A stretch of 57,529 bases of DNA from Escherichia coli. Its GTDB lineage: Bacteria > Pseudomonadota > Gammaproteobacteria > Enterobacterales > Enterobacteriaceae. The stretch lies in assembly GCF_003334355.1 (NCBI RefSeq), contig NZ_QOWP01000025.1. One strand, given 5' to 3'. The notes beneath the pieces are model-generated. The model searched no databases. It was not told the origin of the DNA and worked only from the letters and a program-made list of their open reading frames with translations. Below, one piece after another: positions 47,223 to 56,043 of this stretch. The translations under genes were made by a program, and so were the position numbers. Position 1 is the first letter of the stretch, and each line of letters begins with the position of its first letter.

Positions 47223-48605
47223 TCAACCTGCCACACTCCCCCACACCAGTTGCCCTTTATGGAACGTTGCTGTTCTCGGCGAGATACGCGCCACCGCCTC
47301 GGCAGAACAGGAGGCGTCCACCAGCACAAAGCTGGCGTCATCCTGCGCTTTTGGCCATACACGCTCGCCTTTTTCATTCAGCGGCAATACATCGCCAGTG
47401 GCTAGAAACAGCGAACGGGAGAGGTTCTGTTCGTTAGGACGAATATAGAGCTGCGCGTACAGATTGGCTTTTTCCAGCATGTCGCCCAGACCATAAGGCG
47501 ACCAGTGGTCGATAACGCTGTCAGTGCCAGTCATCACTTTTACGCCTTTGTCGTGCAACTGTTTGAGCGGCATATGCAGCGTGCCAATCGGCACCGTCGA
47601 GGCAATAGAAATTTGTTGCACCACCATCCGGTTCGCCAGTTCATCTACCTGTTGCTCGTTGAGCGTTGCCAGCGCAAAGGCGTGACTGATGGTCAGCTTG
47701 CCCTTCAGCTGTGGCGTTTTCTCTACCGTTTCAACCATATAATTGATGGCTGCCACGCCTGCCGGAGTGGTTTCGTGCAGGTGAATATCGACGCCTTTGT
47801 CGTAGTCCAGCGCAATCTGGAACATGGTGTCGAGGGATTTTTCCATCGCGCCATCAACACTGGTCGGGTCCAGGCCGCCGACGTAATGCGCCCCCGCCTG
47901 CATCGCTTCACGCATTAAAGGTTCAGATTTCGACAGCAGCAAACCGTGCTGCGGGAAGGCGACGATTTCACACTCAAAGCCCGCCTGACGTCGCGCCAGC
48001 ACCGCCTGCAAATTTTGCAGATTTTTCAGGCCGGAAACCGGTTCGATATTGCAGTGGCTGCGGGCAATGGTGGTGCCTTTCGACTGCAATAAATCAATCA
48101 GTTTTTCTGCCCGCTCCTGAGTGTACGGTTGCAGTTCCGGCAGCATTTTCTGCTCGAGTTTGATCATGTCCTGGATGGTGGTGCCTGCCGGACGATTGAG
48201 CGAGCGCCACGGCCCGCCGTAAAAGGTTTTGTCGAGATGAATATGCATGTCGCGGGTGGTGGGCAGCATCAGCTTACCGCCAGCGTCATAGTGCGGCAGC
48301 GTGGCGTCCGGATGCAGCTTGTTCTCGCGCAGGGCGACAATTTTGCCGTCCTGAATCTCCACGGTCTGGCGCGCCGTGCGGGTCTGCACCGCCACGCCAT
48401 TTTCGTAGTCAAAACCGGTTTCCAGCAGCACGTTATCGAGATAGTAATGCGGGTCAGTGATTTTCATGGTGTTGTTCGCTTCGCAGTTTAGGGTGCCAGC
48501 TACCGCCGCATGGGCGAGCGGCACAGAGGTACCAAACAGCGCGGCGGCGGTGACCATCTTACCGCTCTGGCTCAGAAATTCACGGCGGCTATTGCTTTCT
48601 TTCAT
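47223..48605 (-). CDS. yahJ: Amidohydrolase-superfamily deaminase with twin-arginine (Tat) signal peptide
   Basis: 460-aa ORF; N-terminus MKESNSRREFLSQSGKMVTAAALFGTSVPLAHAAV contains S-R-R-x-F-L; HxH motif (DMHIHLD) typical of cytosine-deaminase-like amidohydrolases. Confidence 0.88.
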   Translation of the reverse strand: MKESNSRREFLSQSGKMVTAAALFGTSVPLAHAAVAGTLNCEANNTMKITDPHYYLDNVLLETGFDYENGVAVQTRTARQTVEIQDGKIVALRENKLHPDATLPHYDAGGKLMLPTTRDMHIHLDKTFYGGPWRSLNRPAGTTIQDMIKLEQKMLPELQPYTQERAEKLIDLLQSKGTTIARSHCNIEPVSGLKNLQNLQAVLARRQAGFECEIVAFPQHGLLLSKSEPLMREAMQAGAHYVGGLDPTSVDGAMEKSLDTMFQIALDYDKGVDIHLHETTPAGVAAINYMVETVEKTPQLKGKLTISHAFALATLNEQQVDELANRMVVQQISIASTVPIGTLHMPLKQLHDKGVKVMTGTDSVIDHWSPYGLGDMLEKANLYAQLYIRPNEQNLSRSLFLATGDVLPLNEKGERVWPKAQDDASFVLVDASCSAEAVARISPRTATFHKGQLVWGSVAG

Positions 48606-48614
48606 CTTACGTCC

Positions 48615-49565
48615 TTACGTTTTAATAATATGAGTGCCCGTTTCGCCGCGCAGCGCCGCAGGCAGGCATTCCGGCGTGGTGATAATCACTTCTTTGCCGC
48701 CTTGTTCTAAAAATGTCAGGCTGGCGATGATTTTTGGCAACATGCTGCCGGGCGGGAAATGCCCTTCCTGCATATAGCGGGTCATGGTGGCAATATCCAC
48801 CCGATCGAGCGCCTGCTGCTGCGGTTTGCCAAAGTGAATACACACTTTTTCGACGCCAGTGGTGATCACAAGAATGTCGGCGTGAATTTCACGGGCCAGC
48901 AGCGCGGTAGAGAGATCTTTGTCGATAACCGCGTCCACGCTTTGGTAATCTCCCGCGTCAGTACGCACTACCGGAATTCCACCGCCGCCCGCGCCAATTA
49001 CGACAAAACCTTGTTGGATCAGCGCTTTAATGGCAGGTGCTTCGACAATACGTTTCGGTTCCGGCGAGGCGACCACGCGGCGATAGCCCCGCCCGGCATC
49101 TTCAACAAAACACCAGTCAGGGTTTGCCTTTTGTAATTCGTCACGCTGGCTGTCACTAAAGAATGCGCCGATGGGCTTGGTGGGATGGGCAAAACCTGGA
49201 TCGTTTTTATCCACTTCCACCTGAGTCACCACGGTGACGGCTTTCTTCTCGCCGTGACGCGCCAGCCGGTTATTCAGCGCCTGTTGGATCAGATAGCCGA
49301 TGCCGCCCTGCGTATCTGCCACACAGTTCGCCAGCGGCGTTAAGGGCAGCCCTTCGCGCTCGTGGGCAATCTCCGCACGGCGTAAATCCAGCCCGACCTG
49401 CGGCCCGTTGCCGTGGGTCAGCACAATGTCGTAATCGGAAGCCAGCATTTCCAGCACCGTATCGGCGACGGCTTTCACCGCCTCCGCCTGATGCTCAATC
49501 GACTGGCTGGCGTTATCTTTGATAATGCTGTTGCCACCAATGGCAACGACCACAAGCTCTTTCAT
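48615..49565 (-). CDS. yahI: Carbamate kinase-like protein
   Basis: 316-aa ORF MKELVVVAIGGNSI (amino-acid kinase family N-terminus). Confidence 0.9.
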   Translation of the reverse strand: MKELVVVAIGGNSIIKDNASQSIEHQAEAVKAVADTVLEMLASDYDIVLTHGNGPQVGLDLRRAEIAHEREGLPLTPLANCVADTQGGIGYLIQQALNNRLARHGEKKAVTVVTQVEVDKNDPGFAHPTKPIGAFFSDSQRDELQKANPDWCFVEDAGRGYRRVVASPEPKRIVEAPAIKALIQQGFVVIGAGGGGIPVVRTDAGDYQSVDAVIDKDLSTALLAREIHADILVITTGVEKVCIHFGKPQQQALDRVDIATMTRYMQEGHFPPGSMLPKIIASLTFLEQGGKEVIITTPECLPAALRGETGTHIIKT

Positions 49566-49614
49566 GTTGTTATGTCCGCTACAGAGGGTGATGGGGTTAT
49601 GACCAACGCCAGAC

Positions 49615-49797
49615 TGCCTGATGCGCTACGCTTATCAGGCCTACAATTCTCGCGCCACTCGTAGGCCGGATAAGGCGTTCACGCCGCATCCGGCAATGGT
49701 GACAAATGCCTGATGCGCTACGCTTATCAGGCCTACAGATTCTTGCGCCATTCGTAGGCCGGATAAGGCGTTCACGCCGCATCCGGCATGAACATGT
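49615..49797. repeat. REP/BIME cluster (two REP pairs) between yahI and yahG
   Basis: GCCTGATGCGCTACGCTTATCAGGCCTAC ... GTAGGCCGGATAAGGCGTTCACGCCGCATCCGGCA occurs twice. Confidence 0.85.
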
Positions 49798-49800
49798 AGG

Positions 49801-54367: not shown

Positions 54368-54388
54368 TTGTTGAATAATATTCAACAA
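54368..54388. promoter_or_regulatory. 21-bp palindrome TTGTTGAATAATATTCAACAA in the yahD/yahC divergent intergenic region; candidate operator
   Basis: Perfect 10-bp arms around a central base, between divergently oriented gene sets. Confidence 0.45.
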
Positions 54389-54521
54389 TCTTTTCGCAGT
54401 GTGCGGTAGTGCAATATTTGTTTCTTTGACCCGATACCCTTTCACTCAATCAGGTTTTATTTCTCTATAGTCTGCACATGTAAGAGTAGCTTTCGTCCAT
54501 GTCTAACCAGAGGGGAACAAG

Positions 54522-55019
54522 ATGAACGGACTCACGGCAACGGGTGTCACCGTCGGTATTTGTGCAGGGCTTTGGCAGTTAGTGTCTTCACATGTCGGGC
54601 TCTCTCAAGGATGGGAATTATTAGGAACCATTGGCTTCGTCGCCTTTTGCAGTTTTTATGCCGCAGGCGGCGGTAAATCGGGGTTTATCAGAAGTCTGGC
54701 GGTTAATTATTCCGGGATGGTGTGGGCGTTTTTCGCCGCGCTGACTGCTGGTTGGCTGGCCTCTGTAAGTGGACTGTCCGCGTTCTGGGCGAGCGTAATT
54801 ACTACCGTACCCTTCTCGGCGGTAGTGGTCTGGCAAGGGCGTTTCTGGTTACTGTCCTTTATTCCCGGTGGCTTTCTCGGCATGACGCTGTTTTTTGCCA
54901 GCGGGATGAACTGGACGGTGACGTTACTGGGTTTTCTGGCGGGTAACTGCGTGGGGGTAATTTCAGAATATGGTGGACAAAAATTAAGCGAAGCGACGAC
55001 TAAACGCGACGGGTATTAA
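54522..55019 (+). CDS. yahC: Inner membrane protein YahC
   Basis: 165-aa hydrophobic ORF MNGLTATGVTVGICAGLWQLVSS. Confidence 0.85.
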   Translation: MNGLTATGVTVGICAGLWQLVSSHVGLSQGWELLGTIGFVAFCSFYAAGGGKSGFIRSLAVNYSGMVWAFFAALTAGWLASVSGLSAFWASVITTVPFSAVVVWQGRFWLLSFIPGGFLGMTLFFASGMNWTVTLLGFLAGNCVGVISEYGGQKLSEATTKRDGY

Positions 55020-55110
55020 AAGTTATTCAAAAATGATTATCTATCTTTAACCGATACCTCTACAGTCATAGCTGGAGAAATTCATAGTAGATAATGGCGA
55101 GAATGGTTTA

Positions 55111-56043
55111 ATGAACTCAATTTTTACCGAAGAGAATCTGTTGGCATTTACTACCGCTGCGCGTTTTGGCAGCTTCAGTAAAGCCGCAGAAGAGTTGGGT
55201 TTAACCACTTCCGCCATTAGCTACACCATTAAGCGTATGGAGACGGGGCTGGATGTGGTGCTGTTCACTCGCAGTACCCGCAGCATTGAGTTAACGGAGT
55301 CCGGGCGTTATTTTTTCCGCAAAGCTACCGACCTGCTGAATGATTTTTATGCCATCAAACGCAGTATCGATACTATTTCGCAGGGCATAGAAGCGCGTGT
55401 GCGCATTTGTATTAATCAGCTGCTTTATACGCCCAAACACACCGCACGCTTGTTACAGGTGCTGAAAAAGCAGTTTCCTACCTGCCAGATTACCGTCACC
55501 ACCGAAGTGTATAACGGCGTCTGGGATGCGATTATTAATAATCAGGCCAATATCGCCATCGGCGCACCCGATACACTACTGGACGGCGGCGGTATTGATT
55601 ACACTGAAATTGGCGCGATTCGCTGGGCTTTTGCTATCGCCCCGGATCACCCGTTAGCCTTTGTGCCGGAACCCATCGCCGAAAGCCAACTGCGTCTCTA
55701 CCCTAATATTATGGTGGAGGACACCGCGCATACGATTAATAAAAAAGTGGGCTGGTTGCTGCACGGGCAGGAGTCAATTCTGGTGCCAGATTTCAACACC
55801 AAATGTCAGTGCCAGATTTTAGGTGAAGGAATTGGTTTTTTGCCGGATTACATGGTCCGTGAGGCGATGACGCAATCCCTGCTGGTTACCCGACAAATCC
55901 ATAATCCGCGCCAGGATTCGCGCATGTTACTGGCGACTCAGCATTCTGCTACGGGTCAGGTGACGCAGTGGATTAAAAAACAATTTGCGCCAAATGGCAT
56001 ATTAACGGGGATCTATCAGGATTTACTGCATCGGGAGAATTAA
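55111..56043 (+). CDS. yahB: LysR-type transcriptional regulator
   Basis: 310-aa ORF with N-terminal HTH (LLAFTTAARFGSFSKAAEELGLTTSAISYTIKRME). Confidence 0.9.
   Translation: MNSIFTEENLLAFTTAARFGSFSKAAEELGLTTSAISYTIKRMETGLDVVLFTRSTRSIELTESGRYFFRKATDLLNDFYAIKRSIDTISQGIEARVRICINQLLYTPKHTARLLQVLKKQFPTCQITVTTEVYNGVWDAIINNQANIAIGAPDTLLDGGGIDYTEIGAIRWAFAIAPDHPLAFVPEPIAESQLRLYPNIMVEDTAHTINKKVGWLLHGQESILVPDFNTKCQCQILGEGIGFLPDYMVREAMTQSLLVTRQIHNPRQDSRMLLATQHSATGQVTQWIKKQFAPNGILTGIYQDLLHREN

Follow-up and report, generated by a model that had tools for sequence, protein, structure and literature searches.

The yah cluster of Escherichia coli consists of six genes on the minus strand (yahD, yahE, yahF, yahG, yahI and yahJ) and two on the plus strand (yahC and the regulatory gene yahB). 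Here, we analyse the copy at positions 47223-56043 of a stretch of 57,529 nucleotides from contig NZ_QOWP01000025.1, referred to below as the window; this interval is 99.9% identical to E. coli K-12, and the RefSeq annotation agrees with it. Judged by homology, the cluster is best described as a variant of the AllFGH/AllK system with new partners, namely an ankyrin-repeat protein, a deaminase with a twin-arginine translocation (Tat) signal and an unclassified permease, a carrier that E. coli itself appears to have lost. The homology argument seems sound, and a specific pathway for the cluster is plausible. We put at roughly one half the probability that yahB and yahDEFGIJ encode a catabolic route of the arginine or agmatine deiminase kind, which would use an AllFGH-type carbamoyltransferase and have a purine-like or triazine-like nitrogen compound as its substrate.

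The eight yah genes are among the densest blocks of uncharacterised genes that remain in E. coli K-12. Not until 2024 was an activity assigned to the three-subunit carbamoyltransferase family of YahE, YahF and YahG, and then for oxalurate alone; the Yah type would be a second and wider-spread branch of it, with different partners. Its substrate, once found, would add a nitrogen- and energy-yielding, purine-related pathway in gut and soil bacteria, and would also explain the Tat export of a deaminase and the function of a bacterial ankyrin protein.

Relationship to AllFGH

The allantoin region was fetched from the same K-12 genome, and its proteins were compared pairwise with those of the cluster by BLASTP. 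YahF (51219-52766; 515 residues), an FdrA/AllF-family subunit whose CoA-binding and ligase domains resemble those of succinyl-CoA synthetase alpha, has 38% identity to AllF (E = 2e-101); YahG (49801-51219; 472 residues), of the DUF1116/AllG family, is 45% identical to AllG (5e-120); and YahE (52756-53619; 287 residues, GTG start), of the DUF2877/AllH family, is 25% identical to AllH (2e-10). The carbamate kinase family protein YahI (48615-49565; 316 residues) shares 38% identity with AllK, or YbcF (2e-57), and the LysR-family regulator YahB (55111-56043; 310 residues) shares 39% with AllS (9e-73). The likeness of YahB to AllS, alongside that of the subunits and the kinase, indicates that the regulator was included in the duplication too. 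The original prediction, made from the DNA sequence, had proposed that YahE, YahF and YahG are paralogues of allantoin-region proteins and had named a lack of homology as the finding that would speak against it; homology is clear. It had also mentioned a link of the allantoin-region proteins to oxamate carbamoyltransferase and carbamate kinase, and this link is published: AllFGH was shown in 2024 to be oxamate (oxamic) carbamoyltransferase, for which all three genes are required (PMC11326118), and AllK is a catabolic carbamate kinase (PMC9843812), while AllS is the activator of the allF operon (PMC12535856). The yah genes go unmentioned in these three papers.

The cluster encodes an AllFGH-type subunit set together, with matches to Pfam AllF_N/CoA_binding/Ligase_CoA, AllG and AllH. 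Shared between the two systems are the families of all three subunits, the kinase and the LysR regulator, as well as tight gene linkage; by analogy, the chemistry would also be expected to be shared, with phosphorolysis of an N-acyl-urea to carbamoyl phosphate and then formation of ATP. The Yah set is, however, not the plain analogue of AllFGH that had been proposed. Identities to the All proteins are only 25-45%, and the gene order is E-F-G in the Yah cluster but F-G-H in the All cluster. Among F and G proteins of the Yah type, sampled from Enterobacterales to Brevibacillus, identities are 64-96%, against 35-48% to AllF and AllG, which leaves them outside the AllFGH subgroup; the Yah type is an orthologous group of its own. 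It is always found with an ankyrin protein, its AllH-like subunit is dispensable and sometimes missing, and a deaminase and a permease are the linked partners of its module, where the All module has ureidoglycolate dehydrogenase.

The boundary between F and G is also shifted. Residues 12-53 of YahG (51061-51186, minus strand) are homologous to the C-terminal tail of AllF (residues 513-554; 29% identity, 55% positives, E = 1e-7 in one small pairwise BLASTP comparison), and residues 8-52 match positions 509-553 of the FdrA model NF004760. The tail of ~45 residues in AllF is thus the head of YahG in the Yah type, and AllF is 555 residues long against the 515 of YahF. Since one segment lies on opposite sides of the F/G boundary in the two types, F and G would act as one unit.

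YahF itself scores 487.7 bits against NF004760 (cut-off 433) and matches the FdrA structure PDB 3dmy (4.9e-82); it reaches ~60-67 bits against NCBIfam models of succinyl-CoA synthetase alpha and 63 bits against PDB 2yv2. The GHAGA phosphohistidine loop of that enzyme is not conserved, the 'mGHAGAi' of 2yv2 standing opposite gap or unrelated residues in the HMMER alignment, and the database name 'acyl-CoA synthetase' is therefore unsupported. YahG matches PDB 3clq, which we take to be an Enterococcus faecalis protein, at 654.7 bits (E = 7.9e-196) and is far closer to it than to AllG. YahE is the least conserved member, with 55% identity to its Citrobacter orthologue, where F reaches 86% and G 93%, and with 24-55% identity within the Yah type; yahE is the fastest-evolving gene of the cluster, with a G+C content of 0.44 (52800-53399) against 0.53-0.61 for yahF and yahG.

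The gene yahI, for a putative carbamate kinase of the catabolic type, adjoins the transferase genes. YahI scores 650.4 bits against the NCBIfam subfamily model PRK12352 'carbamate kinase' (cut-off 266) and 346.3 bits against the arcC equivalog TIGR00746, just under the cut-off of 358.25; in metabolic models it is a putative carbamate kinase (PMC3423039). Some E. coli assemblies have single proteins of 677-780 residues that fuse a carbamate kinase domain to YahJ (P0003-P0005, P0008); the two genes are normally 9 bp apart, and the Tat signal of YahJ would become internal in such fusions.

Related clusters in other bacteria

Look-ups of proteins homologous to YahJ and the permease, searches of plasmids and a single metagenome scan supplied gene neighbourhoods, ~100 related loci in all. 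The scan, with an alignment of Yah-type G proteins, gave 80 loci, which were annotated by tblastn with reference proteins and fell into 32 clusters at 97% G identity. The presence counts below refer to clusters with enough flanking DNA.

In Citrobacter (L012) and Serratia (L008), a LysR gene is divergent from genes for, in order, the ankyrin protein, an AllH-like protein, F, G, a 516-residue membrane protein, carbamate kinase and YahJ. Aeromonas (L006) has this order minus the AllH-like gene, and Pasteurella (L019) has all the parts, with the membrane-protein gene in divergent orientation and the LysR gene inside the cluster. The Brevibacillus cluster (L018) is divergent from a PucR gene and encodes the ankyrin protein, an AllH-like protein, F, G, an NCS1 permease that is closest to allantoin permeases, carbamate kinase, a 152-residue deaminase of the cytidine deaminase (CDA) fold and a membrane protein of the 516-residue type. 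Between E. coli and Brevibacillus, identity is 66% for F, 78% for G, 55% for the ankyrin protein and 58% for carbamate kinase, and the Citrobacter and Brevibacillus permeases are 72% identical; between Yah and All proteins of the shared families it is 23-48%. Smaller arrangements are also found: divergent from a LysR gene, Erwinia (L007) has only the ankyrin gene and yahJ, and a metagenome contig (L014) has yahJ followed by the ankyrin gene; in Xenorhabdus and Shewanella, yahJ stands alone.

The ankyrin protein, F and G are constant in all sufficiently complete clusters, and carbamate kinase and a permease are present in nearly all. A deaminase is encoded in ~18 of 21, YahJ-like in ~13-14 and of the CDA fold in four, one of them being L074, whose LysR and ankyrin proteins are close to the enterobacterial ones; the Brevibacillus cluster also has this type. 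The 152-residue CDA-fold deaminase is unrelated to YahJ, and the closest solved relative of the Brevibacillus one is the guanine deaminase of B. subtilis (1wkq, 6e-31). The AllH-like gene is missing from three to four clusters, where the spacer between the ankyrin gene and F measures 107-148 bp. The only further recurrent neighbour found was the PucR-type regulator of Firmicute-like loci, and a riboswitch search of seven distant Yah-type loci found none near the clusters, the sole match being an unrelated c-di-AMP riboswitch. The Yah genes thus seem to form a closed set, with a regulator, a deaminase, one or two permeases, the ankyrin protein with F and G (and optionally E), and the kinase.

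YahD (53659-54264; 201 residues) is the ankyrin-repeat protein of E. coli, predicted to be cytoplasmic, with Pfam Ank_2/Ank_4 matches and no signal peptide. It is 55-73% identical to the ankyrin proteins of Citrobacter, Serratia, Aeromonas, Pasteurella, Brevibacillus, Erwinia and an IncF plasmid. An ankyrin gene occurs in every sufficiently complete Yah-type locus, where its product accompanies deaminases of the YahJ type and of the CDA fold as well as the F/G pair; in Erwinia and on contig L014 it is found with a YahJ orthologue and no transferase genes. A role for YahD as a dedicated chaperone for YahJ export was considered but counts as less likely, since clusters of the Brevibacillus type have no YahJ yet retain the ankyrin protein alongside a small cytoplasmic deaminase.

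YahJ, a putative Tat-exported deaminase

YahJ (47223-48605; 460 residues) is predicted to be a metal-dependent amidohydrolase of the CodA/AtzC deaminase group with a complete set of catalytic residues. It scores 712.7 bits against NCBIfam PRK06846 (cut-off 447) and matches Pfam Amidohydro_3 and Amidohydro_1. Its closest solved structures are AtzC-like N-isopropylammelide isopropylaminohydrolases (6nbo, 1.9e-43), followed by cytosine deaminases; against cytosine deaminase equivalog models it reaches 67-101 bits, with cut-offs of 403-483. In CodA, the metal is bound by an HxH motif, a further histidine and an aspartate, catalysis involves the glutamate of an HxxE motif and a second histidine, and a glutamine binds the substrate. 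H121/H123, H275, D362, E278, H308 and Q219 of YahJ align with CodA H61/H63, H214, D313, E217, H246 and Q156, respectively, while the specificity position D314 of CodA is a serine in YahJ and the position of D216 is a histidine. YahJ thus shares with CodA and AtzC the fold and all catalytic residues, but differs in having a Tat signal, an N-terminal extension of ~50 residues and only 24% identity to CodA. The substrate of AtzC is an s-triazine acyl-guanidine. Opening of a ring by YahJ, one of the steps that had been suggested, is unlikely: the CodA/AtzC group takes off exocyclic substituents, and the rings stay closed.

The Tat signal that had been noted is seen in the sequence. Residues 1-33 (MKESNSRREFLSQSGKMVTAAALFGTSVPLAHA; 48507-48605, minus strand) would form a Tat signal peptide, with a twin-arginine motif SRREFL, a hydrophobic stretch and an AxA site; the N-terminus reads MKESNSRREFLSQSGKMVTAAALFGTSVPLAHA-A, so that the site is AHA-A, and it fits the Tat pattern S/T-R-R-x-F-L-K. 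An RR or RK motif is retained in YahJ relatives at 35-62% identity. More distant homologues start ~50 residues later without a signal, and should, for want of the N-terminal extension, be cytoplasmic. Reporter work on the Tat signal peptides of E. coli is said to have included YahJ. A study of extraintestinal pathogenic E. coli (ExPEC) names YahJ among the Tat substrates with no known function; there, deletion of yahJ caused a mild loss of fitness in mice (competitive index 0.70, p = 0.02; PMC7549933).

One cytoplasmic homologue, 45% identical to YahJ and without a Tat signal, lies in locus L016 (GCA_025562455.1, 775-11233). Its neighbours encode an amidase, a RutB/BiuH-like hydrolase of the isochorismatase family, a gamma-glutamyltransferase (GGT)-family protein, a Bmp-type ABC transporter and a TetR regulator, a set that we take to resemble the HpxY/X/W hydrolytic oxalurate/oxamate branch of Klebsiella. 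For the GGT-like protein, PDB 5hft is top-scoring when its two chains are summed; we presume this structure to be HpxW, which remains a lead only. Within E. coli, an allele with an in-frame deletion of 36 residues (P0013 and similar variants of 424 residues; 47895-48002 in the window) loses the conserved VAFPQHG, is otherwise identical and occurs in at least 28 contigs. Decay of YahJ was considered on account of this deletion and rejected, as the allele is rare (~4 of 5043 complete genomes).

Loss of the permease in E. coli

The 516-residue permease is missing from E. coli and from five related sequence clusters, whose G proteins are 94-96% and YahJ proteins 81-89% identical to those of E. coli; no remnant of its gene was found in the yahG-yahI gaps of E. 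coli and these relatives. In E. coli this gap (49566-49800; no strand assigned), at the position of the permease gene in orthologous clusters, is 235 bp long and filled by two units of ~92 bp of repetitive extragenic palindromic (REP) sequence, or bacterial interspersed mosaic elements (BIMEs), with a match to naRNA4, a REP-derived Rfam family, at 49664-49733. Its length among E. coli contigs is 98-505 bp. The withdrawn gene yahH was located here (PMC11551758, PMC4765031) and is described as 'filled with REP23 sites' (PMC11551758); ribosome profiling of enterohaemorrhagic E. coli found a translated short open reading frame (ORF), X002, in the REP-filled gap and suggested that it is part of the operon (PMC4765031).

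The permease has no sequence match in Pfam, NCBIfam or PDB, and none by BLASTP to the NCS2 protein YbbY. Its confidently predicted model (predicted local distance difference test, pLDDT, 84.7) has the 7+7-helix fold of the UraA, SVCT1, UapA, AzgA and SLC26 transporters; on this model the permease would belong to the UraA/SVCT/SLC26/AzgA superfamily, a fold that does not separate nucleobase from organic-anion cargo. Conversely, yahC (54522-55019), which encodes a 165-residue membrane protein of the DUF1097 family in Pfam, was found only in the permease-less clusters of E. coli and its five relatives, and no cluster had both (L023-L102). The exchange of permease and yahC is probably one evolutionary event, and the pattern is for that reason an observation and not a statistic; YahC possibly substitutes for the lost carrier.

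The ratio of nonsynonymous to synonymous substitution rates (dN/dS) was computed for E. coli against four permease-less relatives, with dS near 1 and no stop codons. It is 0.02-0.04 for yahB, 0.03-0.04 for yahG, 0.05-0.08 for yahI, 0.07-0.09 for yahJ, 0.07-0.12 for yahF, 0.06-0.12 for yahC and 0.06-0.16 for yahD, and highest of the eight genes for yahE (0.24-0.29). Despite the loss of the permease, all eight E. coli genes are therefore kept under purifying selection. The copy is counted as presumably functional from these ratios, the intact reading frames and its retention in ~93% of complete E. coli genomes.

Another copy of the cluster, this one with a permease, was counted in 142 of 5426 E. 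coli genomes and is borne mainly by IncF plasmids. In one of these (NZ_CP128971.1, locus 6107-14540; L013), a LysR gene is divergent from genes for the ankyrin, DUF2877, FdrA and DUF1116 proteins, the permease and carbamate kinase. Its G protein is 90% identical to YahG, its permease gene has 88.7% DNA identity to that of Citrobacter, and the copy is cut off after the kinase by an insertion sequence and has no YahJ.

A proposed pathway for an acyl-guanidine-type amine

The original prediction was a scheme in which a deaminase, carbamoyl transfer and the formation of ATP follow one another. Gene context favours this outline, as the module nearly always occurs with a deaminase and a permease and no other enzyme; ring opening by YahJ and a plain copy of AllFGH are the parts that call for correction. 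We infer every step of the pathway proposed here. YahJ would fold and take up its metal in the cytoplasm and then be exported by the Tat system. In the periplasm, it would strip an acyl-guanidine-type heterocycle of an exocyclic amino or alkylamino group by hydrolysis, giving ammonia and an oxo (acyl-ureide) product. This product would be taken up by the dedicated 516-residue permease in complete clusters; in E. coli, with that permease lost, entry would need another carrier, possibly YahC. YahF-YahG with YahD, and optionally YahE, would then cleave the N-acyl-urea bond with phosphate to carbamoyl phosphate and an amide, as AllFGH does with oxalurate, and YahI would use the carbamoyl phosphate, with ADP, to form ATP, CO2 and ammonia. 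Activation of the operon would fall to YahB, a LysR protein of the AllS kind, acting from a conserved palindrome upstream of yahD.

In its logic, the scheme matches the pathways of arginine and agmatine deiminase: hydrolytic conversion of a guanidino into a ureido type of group by a deaminase or deiminase, a phosphorolytic carbamoyltransferase, an ATP-yielding carbamate kinase and a dedicated membrane carrier. The carbamate kinases are homologous, but the folds of the Yah deaminase and transferase have no relation to those of ArcA/AguA and of the ornithine and putrescine carbamoyltransferase (OTC/PTC) family; moreover, the proteobacterial Yah deaminase is predicted to be periplasmic, and the expected substrate is an acyl-ureide, not an alkyl-ureide.

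Modules of F, G and H with carbamate kinase also occur in other settings. On E. coli plasmids (the IncK type) and in the tkt1 island of ExPEC, the module adjoins a cysteine hydrolase and a cytosine-type permease (PMC3349570, PMC12928451), and in nitrifiers it lies beside biuret and triuret hydrolases (PMC12625717). On a Citrobacter freundii IncF plasmid, it adjoins a ring-opening amidohydrolase and an NCS2 permease. In that plasmid locus (L020; NZ_CP056596.1, 2449-12528), the amidohydrolase is of the cyanuric acid hydrolase/barbiturase kind and the module comes directly after it, with a LysR gene of its own and IS26 on the flanks. The tkt1/IncK and C. freundii modules share with Yah the three subunits and the kinase, an upstream hydrolase, a permease of a nucleobase family and a LysR gene; they differ in that G is only 46-48% identical to YahG, a RutB/BiuH-like cysteine hydrolase or a ring-opening amidohydrolase stands upstream, and no ankyrin protein is annotated. 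Judged from gene context, the neighbouring enzymes of these modules would yield an N-acyl-urea, and the module may be a general unit for acyl-urea phosphorolysis.

As to the substrate, an amino-substituted N-heterocycle or an acyl-ureide is the most likely class. Two unrelated deaminases occupy the same slot of the cluster, which speaks for deamination of a nucleobase-like amine as a step of the pathway, and the guanine-deaminase-like replacement of YahJ narrows the candidates. A purine or ureide flavour is also seen in the PucR regulators of Firmicute-like loci, the allantoin-permease-like permease and the permease of the UraA/SVCT/SLC26/AzgA fold. Together, the guanine-deaminase-like swap, the affinity of YahJ to AtzC and CodA, the PucR- and AllS-like regulators and the permease types point to a purine-like or triazine-like amine. 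Citrobacter and Serratia, with their complete clusters, are better suited than E. coli to a study of this pathway.

Several findings weigh against this reading. The cluster encodes no ring-opening enzyme, so that a cyclic product would give no carbamoyl phosphate unless it opened spontaneously or F/G had a broader activity. E. coli is without the dedicated permease of the orthologous clusters, and YahD has no explained role in the scheme. No deaminase was detected in two to three of the metagenome clusters, and L097, L098 and the IncF plasmid copy are among the loci that show none. Conversely, YahJ orthologues stand alone in Xenorhabdus and Shewanella or with the ankyrin protein only in Erwinia, which indicates that YahJ can work without carbamoyl-transfer genes. 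A scan of 46800-56200 for sigma-70 promoters and terminators gave nothing beyond chance on the minus strand and hence no support for an operon, nor evidence against one. In the literature searched, no enzyme activity, substrate, transcript or phenotype was found for the yah genes except the weak defect of the yahJ mutant.

Alternative explanations

YahD(E)FG and YahI could instead be a second oxamate carbamoyltransferase and carbamate kinase that act on oxalurate, in an oxalurate/parabanate pathway of the enterococcal type used under conditions other than those of allFGHK; YahJ would merely accompany this pathway or supply it, for instance with parabanate or oxalurate formed from an imino precursor. 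We regard this as possible but somewhat improbable. The subunit families are those of AllFGH, and the proximity of YahG to 3clq rather than AllG (654.7 bits) fits as well. A biochemical precedent exists in E. faecalis: according to the passages of PMC6022934 and PMC3282769 that cite Tigier & Grisolia 1965 and Vander Wauven 1986, parabanic acid induces there an oxalurate pathway that comprises oxamate transcarbamylase and a third, dedicated carbamate kinase. The Firmicute-like Yah clusters with PucR and an allantoin-permease-like permease would suit such a pathway, as would the cytoplasmic YahJ homologue beside amidase, isochorismatase-family and GGT-family genes, to the extent that our likening of these to HpxY/X/W holds. 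What tells against a duplicate oxalurate system is that E. coli keeps both the All and the Yah set under purifying selection at only 38-48% identity, that the regulator sites of the two differ, and that neither ureidoglycolate dehydrogenase nor another oxalurate-producing enzyme recurs near Yah-type clusters. A bolder version of the proposed pathway, rather doubtful in our estimate, would make the Yah cluster a widespread and undescribed ATP-yielding pathway for a guanine- or triazine-like acyl-guanidine or for an oxidation product of urate or creatinine, such as an imino-parabanate or oxalurate derivative; the ankyrin protein would be obligatory in a new AllFG subclass, in which it replaces AllH, and the first step would be periplasmic by way of the Tat-exported deaminase.

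The permease loss and the YahJ units found without transferase genes raise the question of whether the E. coli cluster is a composite that is incomplete as a pathway. YahB, YahD and YahJ would then be its sole working part, a periplasmic deaminase for nitrogen scavenging or detoxification, with E, F, G and I cryptic and stranded. The separate unit of LysR, ankyrin protein and YahJ in Erwinia, the YahJ-ankyrin pair on the metagenome contig and the solitary YahJ of Xenorhabdus and Shewanella agree with this, as do the clean deletion of the permease and the continued classification of the genes as uncharacterised (PMC11551758); the permease-containing second copy in 142 genomes could mean that the chromosomal one is insufficient. 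Yet F, G and I have dN/dS values of 0.03-0.12 and no stop codons in lineages that all lack the permease, ~93% of E. coli genomes retain them, other nucleobase permeases are numerous in the species, and yahC is present exactly where the permease is missing, so that we consider a composite unlikely. It is more improbable still, to the point of being scarcely credible, that YahF is an acyl-CoA synthetase and that the cluster activates an organic acid with CoA, with no carbamoyl transfer. This would follow the RefSeq product name 'acyl-CoA synthetase FdrA', the Pfam CoA_binding and Ligase_CoA domains and the weak similarity to succinyl-CoA synthetase alpha, but YahF does not retain the phosphohistidine loop of that protein, the cluster has no gene for a beta (ATP-grasp) subunit, oxamate carbamoyltransferase has been shown by experiment to include the paralogue AllF (PMC11326118), and a carbamate kinase is found in nearly all sufficiently complete clusters.

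Possible regulation by YahB

The best NCBIfam matches of YahB are AllS (NF007501; 267 bits, under the cut-off of 372) and PunR; at 39% identity and below the equivalog cut-off, it is to be seen as a paralogue of AllS. Orthologues with 59-93% identity lie divergent beside the ankyrin gene in Citrobacter, Serratia, Aeromonas and Erwinia. The LysR gene that had been noted near the cluster is divergent from it, and yahC sits between yahB and yahD.

A near-perfect palindrome (20 of 21 positions), TTGTTGAATATTATTCAACAA, lies at 54368-54388 (no strand assigned), ~114 bp before the start of yahD. The window has no second copy of it, and none is expected by chance; in Citrobacter, Serratia, Aeromonas and the copy on the IncF plasmid, the palindrome is conserved 5' of the ankyrin gene. 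It fits a LysR-type operator and is a candidate site for YahB. The palindrome was also sought in the allD-allF control region and is absent there, so that YahB and AllS share no obvious site. Closer to the gene, two promoter-proximal blocks on the minus strand, TTTAAGCGG (54335-54343) and GTTGCTATTCT (54305-54315), have columns that are invariant or nearly so across six sequences. The missing consensus sigma-70 promoter upstream of yahD would fit an activator-dependent promoter. In the ribosome-profiling paper, yahDEFGIJ is treated as a probable operon (PMC4765031).

Gene organisation and occurrence in E. coli

RefSeq names the K-12 genes yahJ, yahI, yahG, fdrA (= yahF), yahE and yahD on one strand and yahC and yahB on the opposite one. 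The six ORFs and yahB had been called with coordinates that agree exactly with the ORFs of the window, and the overlaps of 11 bp between yahE and yahF and of 1 bp between yahF and yahG are likewise as described. Pfam and NCBIfam matches confirm the domain content that had been assigned (ankyrin, DUF2877, FdrA-like, DUF1116, carbamate kinase and Tat-signal amidohydrolase); DUF2877 and DUF1116 are now named AllH and AllG in Pfam. Tight packing of the six genes holds for these overlaps and for the spacers of 9 bp between yahI and yahJ and 39 bp between yahD and yahE, but not for the 235-bp REP gap between yahG and yahI.

The cluster is near-core in E. coli: of 5426 complete genomes, 5021 carry yahEFG, 5039 yahJ and 5087 yahB. 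Coverage of the full interval in 3094 of the 5426 had suggested gene loss, an idea rejected because the alignments broke at the REP repeats. In some strains yahB is split into two ORFs (contig L011) or is uncalled between pdeL and yahC (L010), and in other genomes IS1 interrupts yahB (H79) or yahE (H21).

Apart from edge mentions of YahJ and YahI, the literature searches brought up no work on the function of the yah genes, and they are still classed as uncharacterised in the y-ome paper (PMC11551758). In an expression-library screen of strain UTI89, a fragment with yahD, yahE and part of yahF (52756-54264 in the window) was enriched 17-fold among clones that cause filamentation (PMC6206680). 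Elsewhere in the window, further matches to naRNA4 lie at 14563-14638, 35057-35133 and 39907-39978.

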